NCBI GenBank assembly: GCA_036964625.1 | Contig: JBALTG010000001.1 | Location: 25,379-89,378, forward strand | Length of the DNA stretch: 64,000 nucleotides | Source of the DNA: Motiliproteus sp. | Lineage (GTDB): Bacteria > Pseudomonadota > Gammaproteobacteria > Pseudomonadales > Balneatricaceae | Direction: 5' to 3' | Shown here: piece after piece, positions 28,704-40,581 of the stretch | How positions within the stretch are numbered: position 1 is the stretch's first letter | How the letters are laid out: each line of letters starts with the position of its first letter | Translations under genes and position numbers: made by a program | The notes under the pieces: generated by a model | Told to the model about the DNA's origin: nothing | Databases searched by the model: none | The model's input: only the letters and a program-made list of their open reading frames with translations

Positions 28704-29363
28704 ATGAGCGGGACCGCAGAGCAAAAACCGCGTTGGTTTCGAGTCTGCCTGATACTGCTGCTCTACGCCGGACTTTTTTCGCTAGGCCACTGGGGCGGCG
28801 GCTGGATAACAGAATGGATCAACCTCGATCTCAGCGGCGACGCCTCATCTCCCAATTGGCAGATGATGATTGCGGGGATTGTCCTGTATGTGCTGTTGAT
28901 GGCGATTCCGTTCGTGCCCGGCATGGAGATAAGCATCGCTCTGCTCGCGGTGTTCGGTCCGGCTGCTGCGATACCGGTCTACATCGCGACGCTGGTTGCC
29001 TTGACCTTATCTTGCTTGATTGGGCAACGACTGCCCATCGTGGTACTCACCAGACTGTTTGCCGCGCTCGGCCTGCAACAAGCCAAGACACTGGTCCTGA
29101 GGCTGGAACCCTTAAACGCGCCACAACGACTCGAGATCCTGACCGAGCAGACCCCCAAGCGGCTCTTGGCGCTGCTGTTACAGCACCGTTACATCGCCGT
29201 CATCGTCGCCCTCAATACTCCGGGCAACGCCCTTATCGGTGGTGGCGGCGGCATCGCGCTGCTGGCGGGTATCAGCGGCCTATTCTCGTTACCGCGCTTT
29301 GTCATCGCCGTTGCGTTGGCAGCTGCGCCAGTCCCTCTCGCGATTCTGTTGATCAGCGGCTAA
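28704..29363 (+). CDS. polytopic membrane protein, unknown function (possibly DedA/VTT-like)
   Basis: 219 aa with 5-6 hydrophobic helices and a PFVPGMEIS motif reminiscent of the TVP38/DedA family. The family assignment is not certain. Confidence 0.65.
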   Translation: MSGTAEQKPRWFRVCLILLLYAGLFSLGHWGGGWITEWINLDLSGDASSPNWQMMIAGIVLYVLLMAIPFVPGMEISIALLAVFGPAAAIPVYIATLVALTLSCLIGQRLPIVVLTRLFAALGLQQAKTLVLRLEPLNAPQRLEILTEQTPKRLLALLLQHRYIAVIVALNTPGNALIGGGGGIALLAGISGLFSLPRFVIAVALAAAPVPLAILLISG

Positions 29364-29426
29364 TAAATCTGACCCCGACAGGTCCGGAGAATAGCGCTAG
29401 AGCCGCTGGCACGGAGGAATTTCAGA

Positions 29427-29626
29427 CAAAGAAAAGCCGATCACCTCAGCTCCAGAACGCGCGGTTCAAGAGTGCGATAATCGGCTCGGCTCCAGTTATT
29501 ATTGTTGTTAGGGAGCGGTGTTCGCAGAGCGCCATTATTATTGTTATTGCAGCGACTCTAACGGAGTTTTCGAACTTTTTTGTTATTCTTATTTTTTGTT
29601 ATTCTTATTTTTTGTTCTTATTACTG
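29427..29626 (-). ncRNA. candidate sigma54-dependent A-rich sRNA, copy A (about 200 nt)
   Basis: Bounded by the predicted TSS about 11 nt downstream of the -12 GC and by a compound hairpin (AGCCGAU...AUCGGCU) plus UUUUCUUUG. Contains three AANAANAA tracts. The 5' and 3' ends are predictions. Confidence 0.6.
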
Positions 29627-29634
29627 AACTATAT

Positions 29635-29650
29635 AGCAGAGAGCGTGCCA
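29635..29650 (-). promoter_or_regulatory. sigma54 -24/-12 promoter element, copy A
   Basis: Minus strand reads TGGCACGCTCTCTGCT against the consensus TGGCACG-N4-TTGCW, with GG and GC at the exact canonical spacing. Confidence 0.7.
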
Positions 29651-29746
29651 GAAATCGCAACATGCTGTTTTTGATAGGCTAAGAATATTTTCAGCCTAAT
29701 GCCACCAGATAAGTGTCCGCTAAGCGCTACCTATACACCCACATCG

Positions 29747-29777
29747 GGTAACACTTAATGGGTAGCAAGGTAACACT
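29747..29777 (-). promoter_or_regulatory. candidate enhancer (UAS) for a bacterial enhancer-binding protein, copy A
   Basis: Direct repeat of GGTAACACT (minus strand AGTGTTACC) with a 22 bp period, centred about 110 bp upstream of the -24 element. Confidence 0.5.
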
Positions 29778-29920
29778 TCGGCACAGTCTGCTGTTCTTGC
29801 GCGCACAACGACCTCCCAGCAAGCGACGCCTGACAGGCGATCTACCGCGCTGGACCCACAACACAGGATCTATCGGGCCGAAGACGAGCATCAATGCAGC
29901 TGACGCAGGGGGATTTCAGA

Positions 29921-30106
29921 CAAAGAAAAGCCGATCACCCCAGCTCCAGAACGCGCGTTTCAAGAGTGCGATAATCGGCTCGGCTCCAGTTATTATTGTT
30001 GTTTGGGAGCGGTGTTTCGCAGAGCGCCATTATTATTGTTATTGCAGCGGCTGTTGCGGAGTTTTCGAACTTTTTGTTATTCTTATTTTTTTTGTTCTTA
30101 TTACTA
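29921..30106 (-). ncRNA. candidate sigma54-dependent A-rich sRNA, copy B (about 186 nt)
   Basis: Same architecture as copy A, but without the extra 16-nt A-rich module. Confidence 0.6.
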
Positions 30107-30114
30107 AGCTATAT

Positions 30115-30130
30115 AGCAGAGAGCGTGCCA
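30115..30130 (-). promoter_or_regulatory. sigma54 -24/-12 promoter element, copy B
   Basis: Minus strand TTGGCACGCTCTCTGCTATATAG. Confidence 0.7.
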
Positions 30131-30227
30131 ATAAACGCAACATACTGTTTTTACAGGGTGTCGGCATGCTTTCAGGCTAATGCCTCCAGATGATAATCCG
30201 CTAAGCGCTACCTATATACCCACATCG

Positions 30228-30258
30228 GGTAACACTTGATGGGTAGCAAGGTAACACT
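30228..30258 (-). promoter_or_regulatory. candidate enhancer (UAS), copy B
   Basis: GGTAACACT at 30228 and 30250, a 22 bp period. Confidence 0.5.
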
Positions 30259-30387
30259 TCGGCACAGGCCGCTTTGTTGCGCCCACAGCAACCTCCCAGC
30301 AAGCGACCCACAGCACTAGACCTGCGGCACAGGGCTTATCAGGCCTGGAGACGAGTACTAACATAACGGACGCAGAGGAATTTCAGA

Positions 30388-30574
30388 CAAAGAAAAGCCG
30401 ATCACCCCAGCTCAAGAACGCGAGGTTCCAGAGTGCGATAATCGGCTCGGCTCCAGTTATTATTATTGTTTGGGAGCGGTGTTTCGCAGAGCGCCATTAT
30501 TATTGTTATTGCAGCGCCTATTGCGGAGTTTTCGAACTTTTTTGTTATTCTTATTTTTTTTGTTCTTATTGCTA
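30388..30574 (-). ncRNA. candidate sigma54-dependent A-rich sRNA, copy C (about 187 nt)
   Basis: Same architecture. This is the copy closest to the upstream exonuclease gene. Confidence 0.6.
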
Positions 30575-30582
30575 ATACATAT

Positions 30583-30598
30583 AGCAGAGAGCGTGCCA
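30583..30598 (-). promoter_or_regulatory. sigma54 -24/-12 promoter element, copy C
   Basis: Minus strand TTGGCACGCTCTCTGCTATATGT. Confidence 0.7.
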
Positions 30599-30694
30599 AT
30601 AAATGCAACGCGCTGTTTTTAAAGCGATAGCTGTATTTTAGGTATAAAACCATCTGATAAGCGCCCGCTAAGCGCTACCTATACACCCACATCG

Positions 30695-30725
30695 GGTAAC
30701 ACTTAATGGGTAGCAAGGTAACACT
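30695..30725 (-). promoter_or_regulatory. candidate enhancer (UAS), copy C
   Basis: GGTAACACT at 30695 and 30717, a 22 bp period, about 45 bp downstream of the exonuclease stop codon. Confidence 0.5.
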
Positions 30726-30768
30726 TTGATACGGCCCGCACTCTTGCGCGCACACTGCTCCGCCGCCG

Positions 30769-31428
30769 TTATGCCGACGCCTCGGGCTCCAATACAGGCT
30801 CCGGCTCCTGATCCAGGATCGGCAGCTGGGAATCGGCTTTGTTCATCGCTTCGAGCACCTTGAGCGCCGCGTAGGCATCATTCGCGGCGTACAGCAGCTG
30901 ATTGCTTTTCAATTCAGGCAGCGCCCAATTAGAGGTCGATACGTGCTTGGACTTTTGAAAACGCTGTTTCAACACGACCGCTATCGCCGCCTTGACCCCG
31001 ATCTCCTTGCGATAGCCTTCGGCACGAAATAGCAGATTCAGATCCAGCAGAGCCCTGGGTTTGATAGCGAGCTTTCGCAGCAGGTGACCCCGATCCGATT
31101 TCAGCCCGAAACCCACCTTGACCAGCGTCGGCAATTGCAGCAATTCTGCGACCAGGGCATGACAGGCGTCATGCTGTAGCTGAAAAATATAGGCCCTCTT
31201 CAGAGTCGTTAGCTGAATCACATGCGGGCCATCGGAGATCTGGCCGGGCCTGAAACAGGGCTTTGACTCGGTATCAAAGCCAACGTAACGACAGCGCGAA
31301 AGATCCGCTGCTGCCGCAACAAACTCGGCCTGGGTGGAGGGAACAATGATCTGCTCCAGAGTCAGGCCCGTAAACGGGGGCAGTAAGGCGATATCGGCTT
31401 TTGAGGGCGGTTCAAGCTTTTTGGTCAT
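30769..31428 (-). CDS. DEDDy-type 3'-5' exonuclease domain protein (RNase D/WRN-exo-like)
   Basis: 219 aa. ExoI motif GFDTES and ExoIII motif YAANDAYAA (Y-x3-D). Confidence 0.8.
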   Translation of the reverse strand: MTKKLEPPSKADIALLPPFTGLTLEQIIVPSTQAEFVAAAADLSRCRYVGFDTESKPCFRPGQISDGPHVIQLTTLKRAYIFQLQHDACHALVAELLQLPTLVKVGFGLKSDRGHLLRKLAIKPRALLDLNLLFRAEGYRKEIGVKAAIAVVLKQRFQKSKHVSTSNWALPELKSNQLLYAANDAYAALKVLEAMNKADSQLPILDQEPEPVLEPEASA

Positions 31429-38724: not shown

Positions 38725-38943
38725 GCCCCTTTGAGCCTGAATTAAATCCTTAATTAAACCCAGATCACGGCACTGGTCCCTTTATAACCGCACCTTAGGA
38801 GCTAGCAGCGGTTTTTAAGCCGCTGATATCAGGAGATAGCCACTAGACTACTTTCAGTCACTGAATTAAAGATGCGGTAACAGCAGGAACCATTATCGAC
38901 GGAATGACTCATAGGCTCAGACATTTGGGGACCCTTGAATCTT

Positions 38944-40581
38944 ATGCTTAGAAATTTGCGACTCTGTACCGGCTTGGTGCTGGCTAGCTTTATCAGCCTG
39001 CATCTGCTTAATCACGCCCTCGGGCTGGCGTCGCTGGATGCGATGGAGGCCGTGCGTGAAGTGCTGGCGCCCTTCTGGGGCACCTGGCCGATGATGTTTC
39101 TACTGTACGGCTCGCTGCTAACCCATCTGCTGCTGGCGTTCCACTCCCTCTACAACCGTACAACCTTGCGCATGCCACTTTGGGAAGCAGCCCAACTGCT
39201 GCTGGGACTGTCGATTCCACCCTTGCTGCTGGTGCACCTGATCGGAACGCGGGTCACCATGGAGCTGATGGATATTGAAGTCCAGTACCGGCATGTGATC
39301 ACCGCCCTGTGGAGCCTGCCCTATAAGGTTGAGTGGCAGACAGTATTGATCCTGGTGGTGTGGGGGCATCTGTTACTGGGCTTGCACTACTGGTTGCGGC
39401 TCAAGCAGGGTTATCGAGACAGCCAATGGTTGTGGCAAATCATGGCGACCCTGGTGCCGTTGCTGGCGCTGCTGGGATTTTATCGGATGGGGTGGGAGTT
39501 GGGCAGCGTGGATATGGCGGTGCGCAAGGCAGAGTTGGTGGCCAAGGATCCGACAATGATGGCGTTTATCGGCACCCTCGAAGAGCGCGGCTTAACTATC
39601 TATTGGGGGGCACTGGCACTGGTCATGCTGGCGCGCTATGTGCGAGCGGTCTATCGAGTCAATTTTGGCTCGATTATGGTCGAACATCCTGCTCGGGGGG
39701 TGTTTTCTGCCCCGATTGGATCGTCCCTGCTGGATGCCTTGAGATCCGCGGGCGTTGATCACTCGTCGGTGTGCGGGGGACGTGCACGCTGTACCACCTG
39801 TCGTGTCCGGGTCACGCGTGGATTGGAGAAATTACCGCCACCGGAAGAGGCGGAACGTAAGGCCCTTGAAGGAATTCGTGCGGATCCCTCTACGCGACTG
39901 GCGTGCCAGGTGCACTTGTGTGCCGATATCGCGGTTGTGCCACTGATACCCCCAGGCTATGGCATGGACTATGTGCGCCGTCCGGGAGGCATCGAAGGCA
40001 AAGAGCAGCAGCTGGCTATATTATTCGTTGATCTGCGCGACTCCACCCGTTTGGGCGAACAACGCCTGCCTTACGACGTGGTTTTTGTGCTTAATCAATT
40101 TTTCGCCGAGATGTCGGCCGCACTGGAGCAAACCGATGGCCATTACGCTCAGTTCAACGGTGACGGCCTGATGGCGATTTACGGATTGAGCAGCGATCTG
40201 CAGAGCGCCTGTCGACAAGCCCTTAAAGGCGCTCGATCCATGTTTGAACGCGTCGAACAACTCAATCTGCGCCTACAGCAGGAGCTTGAGCAGCCGCTGC
40301 GCATCGGTGTGGGCATTCACTGTGGTGAGGCGATTGTCGGCGCGATGGGACCGCCCAGCGCACCGATACTGTCGGCGGTGGGGGATACGGTCAACACGGC
40401 GGCGCGATTGGAATCACAATGCAAACCCTCCCAGGTACCGCTGCTGGTTTCAAAACAAACGTTTGAGTATGCCCAACTACCCATTACCGATGAGGTTCAG
40501 GAACTGCCGTTGCGGGGCCGTTATCAGCCGCTTGAGGTGGTGATGGTGCGCGATCCGATGAGCTTGCCAGCGAGTTCCTGA
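38944..40581 (+). CDS. membrane-anchored 2Fe-2S ferredoxin-domain / class III adenylate-guanylate cyclase fusion protein
   Basis: N-terminal His-rich TM bundle, then CGGRARCTTCRV...LACQV (plant-type 2Fe-2S), then CHD motifs AILFVDLRDST, FNGDGLMAIYG and VGDTVNTAARLES. Start is ATG 38944 or TTG 38935. Confidence 0.85.
   Translation: MLRNLRLCTGLVLASFISLHLLNHALGLASLDAMEAVREVLAPFWGTWPMMFLLYGSLLTHLLLAFHSLYNRTTLRMPLWEAAQLLLGLSIPPLLLVHLIGTRVTMELMDIEVQYRHVITALWSLPYKVEWQTVLILVVWGHLLLGLHYWLRLKQGYRDSQWLWQIMATLVPLLALLGFYRMGWELGSVDMAVRKAELVAKDPTMMAFIGTLEERGLTIYWGALALVMLARYVRAVYRVNFGSIMVEHPARGVFSAPIGSSLLDALRSAGVDHSSVCGGRARCTTCRVRVTRGLEKLPPPEEAERKALEGIRADPSTRLACQVHLCADIAVVPLIPPGYGMDYVRRPGGIEGKEQQLAILFVDLRDSTRLGEQRLPYDVVFVLNQFFAEMSAALEQTDGHYAQFNGDGLMAIYGLSSDLQSACRQALKGARSMFERVEQLNLRLQQELEQPLRIGVGIHCGEAIVGAMGPPSAPILSAVGDTVNTAARLESQCKPSQVPLLVSKQTFEYAQLPITDEVQELPLRGRYQPLEVVMVRDPMSLPASS

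Follow-up and report, generated by a model that had tools for sequence, protein, structure and literature searches.

A 64-kb window of the genome of Motiliproteus sp. (the whole stretch of DNA that was analyzed, 64,000 nucleotides) carries on its minus strand three consecutive modules, which we read as a sigma-54- and enhancer-dependent array of CrcZ-like small RNAs that would titrate Hfq. Based on sequence features and analogy to known systems, we assign this reading as a whole a probability of roughly 0.6. Its firmest part is the identification of three identical 16-mers as sigma-54 (RpoN) promoters directing minus-strand transcription, which is very probably correct. A sponge function of the RNAs toward Hfq is also rather likely, and a relationship of the activator to CbrB is proposed tentatively. 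The first-pass annotation had recognized the promoter element, and that part is retained here, but its product, an array of A-rich CrcZ-like small RNAs, was not named there.

The region 29370-30800 is composed of three head-to-tail modules of 467-494 bp each, which share 86% mean column identity. Read 5' to 3' on the minus strand, each module consists of an enhancer, a variable spacer of ~45 bp, a small conserved block, the -24/-12 element, an RNA of 183-197 nt, and a terminator (Table 1). When the three copies were aligned, the fraction of invariant columns was 0.95 in the enhancer, 0.45 in the enhancer-promoter spacer, 0.58 in the 26 bp upstream of the 16-mer, 1.00 in the 16-mer, 0.58 in the 12 bp downstream of it, 0.86 in the RNA (a value lowered by one indel), and 0.43 after the terminator. 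The 16-mer was the best-conserved short block of the promoter region, and no block between the enhancer and the RNA was more conserved.

Table 1. Features of the small RNA array and the genes that flank it (window coordinates; enhancers, promoters, and RNAs are predictions).
Feature	Position	Strand	Remarks
3'-5' exonuclease gene, RNase D-like, PF01612	30769-31428	minus	Upstream of the array; syntenic anchor
Putative enhancer (UAS), module 1	30673-30723	minus	Three hexamer subsites
Predicted sigma-54 -24/-12 element, module 1	30583-30598	minus	TGGCACGCTCTCTGCT; consensus scan
Predicted sRNA copy 1	30388-30572	minus	~183-185 nt; terminator hairpin and U-run 30388-30448; model R1, 228.7 bits
Putative enhancer (UAS), module 2	30206-30256	minus	Same three hexamer subsites as module 1
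Predicted sigma-54 -24/-12 element, module 2 (site named in the first-pass annotation)	30115-30130	minus	TGGCACGCTCTCTGCT; consensus scan
Predicted sRNA copy 2	29921-30104	minus	~184 nt; terminator 29921-29981; model R1
Putative enhancer (UAS), module 3	29725-29775	minus	Three hexamer subsites
Predicted sigma-54 -24/-12 element, module 3	29635-29650	minus	TGGCACGCTCTCTGCT; consensus scan
Predicted sRNA copy 3	29427-29624	minus	~197 nt; terminator 29427-29487; model R1
Convergent ORF, 219 aa, no Pfam match	28704-29363	plus	Downstream; bounds the array

The small conserved block, AAAAACAG-N3-GTTGC, directly precedes the -24 element on the minus strand (29657-29672, 30137-30152, and 30605-30620). 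It is partly retained as TTAACAGTAGGATGT in the single orthologous module of another Motiliproteus genome (L002) and is a poor match to the integration host factor (IHF) consensus. When the enhancer-promoter interval of the three modules and L002 was searched for the IHF consensus WATCAANNNNTTR at eight or more of its nine specified positions, no site was found, and IHF sites are degenerate. A separate GC-rich segment of 34 nt, which reads GTCGCTTGCTGGGAGGT.G.TGTG.GCGCAA in the minus-strand direction, precedes the module 2 and 3 enhancers in conserved form (30274-30307 and 29794-29827). The segment is missing ahead of module 1, a place occupied by the end of the exonuclease gene, and marks the boundary of the duplicated unit.

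A consensus scan was performed on the whole window to evaluate the -24/-12 element. The 16-mer TGGCACGCTCTCTGCT occurred three times, always on the minus strand and with 0 mismatches, compared to a mean of 0.09 in shuffled windows; the positions are exactly those given in the first-pass annotation. Each copy met 11 of the 12 specified positions of TGGCACG-N4-TTGCW with the canonical GG-N10-GC spacing, and the sole mismatch was a C replacing the first T of TTGC. The earlier description of the spacing and of this single T-to-C departure was therefore accurate, as was the statement that the 16-mers are identical while the tetramers preceding them differ (TTTC, TTAT, and TTAT).

At one mismatch or fewer, five sites were present in the window versus 1.05 expected, a count reached in none of 100 shuffles, and among these five sites the GG and GC were both intact only in the three 16-mers. 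At two mismatches or fewer, 16 sites were found versus 14.4 expected, which is the chance level, and thus it is the quality of the match that counts for the 16-mers. The three 16-mers are paralogous copies of one tandem repeat and represent one independent occurrence rather than three; the argument from their identity is therefore weak alone.

The promoter of the L002 module, TGGCATGCTAGCTGCA, keeps GG-N10-GC and differs from the 16-mer by four changes, located at position 6 (C to T), at two positions in N4, and at the final W (T to A). In this comparison, which involves one ortholog, the changes fall at weakly constrained positions. No sigma-70-like promoter was found on either strand of 29300-30850, where 1.8 were expected. 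With the C of GC taken as -12, the predicted start sites on the minus strand are G30572, G30104, and G29624, which differ from the earlier estimates by at most 1 nt; in copy 2, +1 would be G30104 or A30105, which is 12 nt past the C of GC. In all four copies, namely the three modules and L002, the predicted +1 coincides with the beginning of the A-rich RNA. The RNAs running from these predicted starts end in a long GC-rich hairpin and a U-run in every module, in agreement with the minus-strand direction proposed in the first pass. The sigma-54 reading made there is likewise supported by the consensus fit, the conservation of the block, the GG and GC kept in the ortholog, the lack of a sigma-70-like promoter in the interval searched, and the enhancer-like repeat upstream.

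This repeat has the form GTGTTACC-N15-TGTTACCC-N15-GTAGCG on the minus strand, which corresponds to the subsites TGTTAC-N16-TGTTAC-N17-(G)GTAGCG, and the hexamer centers are 22 and 23 bp apart in all of the enhancers. TGTTAC-N16-TGTTAC occurs three times in the window, all within the modules, versus 0.08 expected. Counted from the predicted +1, the three subsites extend from -152 to about -102. TGGC follows the first TGTTAC at a distance of 125, 126, and 125 bp in modules 1, 2, and 3 (30598-30723, 30130-30256, and 29650-29775) and 135 bp in L002 (6931-7066). The additional 10 bp equal one helical turn and would preserve the helical phasing between enhancer and promoter, despite the poorly conserved sequence in between. 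The enhancer of L002 is retained as TGTTACC-N15-TGTTACCC-N15-GTAACG with partly changed spacers, and the same pattern was observed in a related contig (L055). A near-consensus -24/-12 element without -10/-35 elements and with half-sites on one face of the helix ~100-150 bp upstream presents the layout expected of a sigma-54 promoter served by an activator.

The published CbrB site is TGTTAC-N12-14-GTAACA-N15-19-GTAACA with centers 20-25 bp apart, and in P. putida crcZ the third CbrB subsite, named R2, is GTAACg. The putative enhancer fits this site in the number and spacing of its subsites and in the first and third subsites, but its middle TGTTAC is forward, whereas it is reversed in the CbrB consensus. 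The authors of the CbrB study stated that chance recurrence of 6-bp subsites occurs and that they could not derive a consensus with predictive value.

Each predicted RNA opens with AAU AAG AAC AAA AAA AAU AAG AAU AAC AAA AAA, a run of 11 consecutive AAN triplets. Two more tracts of five triplets, AAUAACAAUAAUAAU and AACAACAAUAAUAAC, form the 15-nt loops of two predicted hairpins. In total, ~21-25 AAN triplets per RNA lie in regions predicted to be unpaired (the 5' end and the two hairpin loops), arranged in tracts of 11, 5, and 5 triplets, and each RNA has 15-19 overlapping AAnAAnAA motifs. The 64-kb window contains 69 such motifs on its minus strand, 49 of them inside the 1.4-kb array, and 11 on its plus strand. 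The fold of copy 2 had a minimum free energy of -45 kcal/mol with a z-score of -2.8, and its A-rich tracts remained unpaired. The terminator of every module is a long GC-rich hairpin followed by CUUUUCUUU.

Copy 3 contains a 16-nt internal tandem duplication, AAAAAAUAAGAAUAAC, in its 5' A-rich tract (29576-29606, minus strand) with a net gain of 14 nt. The duplication lengthens the tract, adds AAN triplets, and shifts the register, resulting in three runs of five triplets; the length of the A-rich tract itself seems to be evolving.

The RNAs of the array and L002 were compared for structure and substitution pattern. In the predicted structure, 96% of the cells were paired, and four pairs showed compensatory changes versus none in slid controls. 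Between the window and L002, 11 of the 12 substitutions in the A-rich tracts affected the N of an AAN triplet (binomial P = 5e-5), a pattern indicative of selection on the triplet register itself. The whole RNA is available from two independent lineages (the window and L002) together with one enhancer fragment (L055), so that these comparative tests are indicative and draw on few events. A protein-coding reading of the array was also considered and rejected: its ORFs are not conserved, and the only recurring one (31 aa) is disrupted by a frameshift in copy 3, while its L002 counterpart is without an ATG.

Known RNA families were searched with Rfam. In the whole window, no family reached its gathering threshold. 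The best match to the CrcZ family (RF01675) scored 13.8 bits (E = 0.46; the gathering score is 95) and involved the A-rich 5' tract alone. At E <=10, the region 29300-30850 gave chance-level matches only, without Qrr, GlmY/GlmZ, or any other curated sigma-54-dependent sRNA family. AAnAAnAA motifs were also surveyed around start codons in the rest of the window, with no interpretable outcome.

The distal face of Hfq is known to bind A-R-N triplets, six per hexamer. In Pseudomonas, CrcZ titrates Hfq via this face, drawing it off A-rich ribosome-binding sites, and the CrcZ binding motif is AAnAAnAA. We propose that the array works in a comparable manner. Each 16-mer would be the -24/-12 core of an RpoN promoter, one per gene, activated by an enhancer-binding protein on the three hexamers (TGTTAC, TGTTAC, and GTAGCG) centered ~100-150 bp upstream of the start. 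Minus-strand transcription would start ~12 nt after the GC and stop at the intrinsic terminator, producing a non-coding RNA of ~185 nt from each of three head-to-tail genes with their own enhancers and promoters. The unpaired AAN triplets correspond to the motif of the Hfq distal face and could accommodate ~3-4 hexamers per RNA, in addition to the U-rich 3' end. When the activator is on, the RNAs would build up and, by titration, draw Hfq (alone or together with a Crc-like partner) off mRNAs with A-rich ribosome-binding sites, and the translational repression of those mRNAs would be relieved. The triplication would raise the RNA dose. The analysis itself establishes the anatomy of the sequence, its pattern of conservation, the predicted fold, and the lack of a conserved ORF. 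In this scheme, we infer the RpoN dependence, the start site, the Hfq binding, and both the identity of a CbrB-like activator and its signal.

Other explanations accept the sigma-54 promoters and differ in what the RNAs do or in what activates them. The RNAs might be trans-acting, base-pairing, Hfq-dependent sRNAs of a class II-like type rather than sponges, with A-rich tracts that are mere distal-face anchors and a seed that acts on specific mRNAs, in the manner of the sigma-54/LuxO-dependent Qrr sRNAs. The evidence for promoter, terminator, and non-coding nature fits this equally well, as do the sRNA-like size of ~185 nt and the U-rich 3' tail, which suits the proximal face of Hfq; A-rich tracts also occur in class II base-pairing Hfq-dependent sRNAs. 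Two single-stranded segments that are not A-rich, GUUCGAAAACUCCG and CUGCGAA (between hairpins 2 and 3), are partly conserved and could serve as seeds, but in the ortholog comparison their conservation is below that of the A-rich tracts and the terminator. Moreover, three tracts with 21-25 AAN triplets per RNA, compared to the six distal pockets of a hexamer, go far beyond the need of an anchor, the pattern of substitutions indicates selection on the triplet register, and no base-pairing sRNA family in Rfam matches. A base-pairing role is thus considered unlikely. It is also conceivable that both the promoter and the sponge-like RNA are real and that another NtrC-family activator responds to a signal other than carbon, for example nitrogen, as with NtrC and NrsZ in P. 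aeruginosa, with the likeness to the TGTTAC site being coincidental. The large ORFs in the 64-kb window included no sigma-54 activator (enhancer-binding protein), CbrA-like kinase, CbrB, or Crc, and no GAFTGA motif was found in any of its frames. The orientation of the middle subsite is wrong for the CbrB consensus, CbrAB has been reported from Pseudomonadaceae only, and the caveat of the CbrB authors about chance recurrence of 6-bp subsites applies here. Nevertheless, two perfect TGTTAC hexamers plus GTAACG or GTAGCG at center distances of 22 and 23 bp match the published arrangement of three subsites and its spacing, this combination is found within the window in the three modules only, and the RNA downstream is of the same functional type as the CbrB targets crcZ and crcY. 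This reading as a whole is considered improbable.

The remaining explanation denies the promoter itself, taking the 16-mer as a chance match in a duplicated intergenic repeat and any RNA as a processed read-through product of the exonuclease gene. The stop codon of the exonuclease gene is ~45 nt from the module 1 enhancer without a terminator in between (30724-30771, minus strand), so read-through into the array, and hence into sRNA copy 1, is possible. Read-through from cbrB into crcZ has been described in P. putida, where processed read-through transcripts are likewise a source of CrcZ and CrcY. In addition, the paralogous copies are one independent occurrence, and about one consensus match at one mismatch or fewer is expected per 64 kb by chance. 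Against this stand the ortholog, which keeps GG and GC while neighboring positions change, the conservation of the 16-mer above any other block between enhancer and RNA, the phased and conserved enhancer at the expected distance, and the start of the A-rich RNA at the predicted +1 in all four copies. Copies 2 and 3 are each located behind a strong terminator and would be hard to reach by read-through. It is very improbable that the 16-mers are not promoters, and the preferred reading remains that of sigma-54-dependent RNAs that titrate Hfq.

The 407-nt CrcZ of Pseudomonas contains six A-rich stretches, and CbrB activates its RpoN promoter. Like the genes for CrcZ, CrcY, and CrcX of Pseudomonas and Azotobacter, those of the array have a (here predicted) sigma-54 promoter preceded by TGTTAC-type subsites ~22 bp apart, and more than one paralog per genome can occur in both cases. 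As in CrcZ, an A-rich tract stands at the very start of the RNA, several AAnAAnAA or (ARN)n motifs are unpaired, transcription would end at an intrinsic terminator, and a protein gene on the same strand is located just upstream, making a read-through form possible. The differences are also considerable. The array RNA is ~185 nt rather than ~400 nt long and has three tracts rather than six, the first of double length. CrcZ, CrcY, and CrcX are encoded at separate loci, not in tandem, whereas three complete units stand in direct tandem here. The array follows an RNase D-like exonuclease gene, not cbrB; its middle activator subsite is forward; and there is neither a clear IHF site nor a significant match to the Rfam CrcZ family. 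The host is Motiliproteus, which is outside the Pseudomonadaceae, and reviews describe CbrAB/crcZ as unique to that family. On present evidence, the array RNA may work like CrcZ, either as a highly diverged relative or as a convergent solution.

Some features of the array are found in other regulatory RNAs. The Qrr RNAs are multiple paralogous, Hfq-associated sRNAs, each with its own enhancer; they are ~100 nt long, act by base pairing with a conserved seed, and are dispersed in the genome. The array likewise consists of several paralogous sRNA genes, each with a predicted sigma-54 promoter and enhancer of its own, but its RNAs are in tandem and dominated by AAN tracts, the LuxO site motif is absent, and no Rfam Qrr family matches. 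Vibrio Qrr1-5 are described as LuxO- and sigma-54-dependent. The array also resembles NrsZ in being a predicted sigma-54-dependent sRNA with a repeated modular build. NrsZ of P. aeruginosa, which depends on sigma-54 and NtrC and has such a modular build, is a single processed transcript with internal repeats, whereas three complete genes are present here with their own enhancer, promoter, and terminator. Furthermore, the enhancer half-sites of the array are not of the NtrC type, and no Rfam family was matched at threshold.

RsmY/RsmZ and CsrB/CsrC carry GGA motifs for CsrA/RsmA and are transcribed from sigma-70 promoters with GacA/UvrY boxes. The array RNAs would share with them the presentation of many protein-binding motifs in loops and, as proposed here, the titration of a global translational repressor. 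Several paralogs per genome and two-component activation are further elements of logic common to those systems and our reading of the array. In contrast, the motif of the array is AAN, and its predicted promoter is of the sigma-54 type.

The distribution of the module was examined by synteny, using the exonuclease gene as an anchor, in 47 genome loci. The exonuclease protein of the window has a 100% identical counterpart annotated in a metagenome-assembled genome of Motiliproteus sp. In Neptunomonas sp. MAG-BB-4 (L001), the protein is 99% identical, and the contig ends inside module 1 (5848-5972 of L001). The L002 genome encodes an exonuclease with 77% identity and has one orthologous module at the same place. 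Protein look-ups led to three further contigs, L053, L054, and L055. The exonuclease of L055 (Logan SRR22388029) is also 77% identical; its enhancer is present, and the contig then ends inside the first module (2444-2564). Among the 47 loci, a full module was found in L002 only, L001 being cut off. No module was present at the exonuclease locus of six more distant relatives (L003-L006, L053, and L054). Three of these, L006, L053, and L054 (6600-6960, 2688-2732, and 2186-2373, respectively), encode exonucleases with 64-75% identity and have the locus without the sRNA module; in L006, the exonuclease gene is immediately adjacent to the small convergent gene located after the RNA in L002. There is thus presence/absence variation at this locus, with a copy number of 0, 1, or 3 among relatives.

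Broader searches were also carried out. A metagenome scan with the enhancer pattern gave five loci, consisting of two simple repeats and three unrelated sequences, with no recognizable module. Nothing was found by a scan of viral contigs with the RNA pattern or by blastn of plasmids. Covariance model R1, applied to 319 kb of sequence, recovered the four known copies only; weak matches in L035 and L029 were read and were not homologous. Two related contigs (L001 and L055) end inside the first module; tandem repeats probably break short-read assemblies, so that the copy number of the array elsewhere is likely to be under-reported.

In the literature, we found no CrcZ-like RNA reported from Oceanospirillales-type bacteria or Motiliproteus, and tandem amplification of whole enhancer-promoter-sRNA-terminator units is an arrangement not described for CrcZ, CrcY, and CrcX. 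The array may represent a CbrB/CrcZ-type circuit outside the Pseudomonadaceae, in the marine genus Motiliproteus, an interpretation that we place slightly below even odds: a compact sponge of ~185 nt that would titrate Hfq and thereby lift repression of translation of the catabolite type, invisible to current RNA family models, triplicated, and varying in presence among close relatives. If this is true, global control of carbon and nutrient use by Hfq titration is not peculiar to Pseudomonas and Azotobacter. The RNA would then be a minimal natural sponge, with one long and two short A-rich tracts in ~185 nt, useful for the question of how many Hfq hexamers bind per RNA. The copy numbers of 0, 1, and 3 among relatives would show clearly how tandem gene amplification can tune dosage. 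Since Rfam misses this family and repeats break short-read assemblies, such arrays are probably under-reported in metagenome-assembled genomes.

Additional observations concern the neighboring genes. An RNA exonuclease gene adjoins the sRNA locus in three lineages, which may or may not have a functional meaning. An activator gene is present in L006 and encodes a generic NtrC-family response regulator without assignment to a specific family. Elsewhere in the window, an ORF of 548 aa on the plus strand (38935-40581) carries both a 2Fe-2S ferredoxin domain (PF00111) and a class III adenylate/guanylate cyclase domain (PF00211). Such a fusion is unusual, and its predicted domain composition suggests a redox-sensing cyclase.
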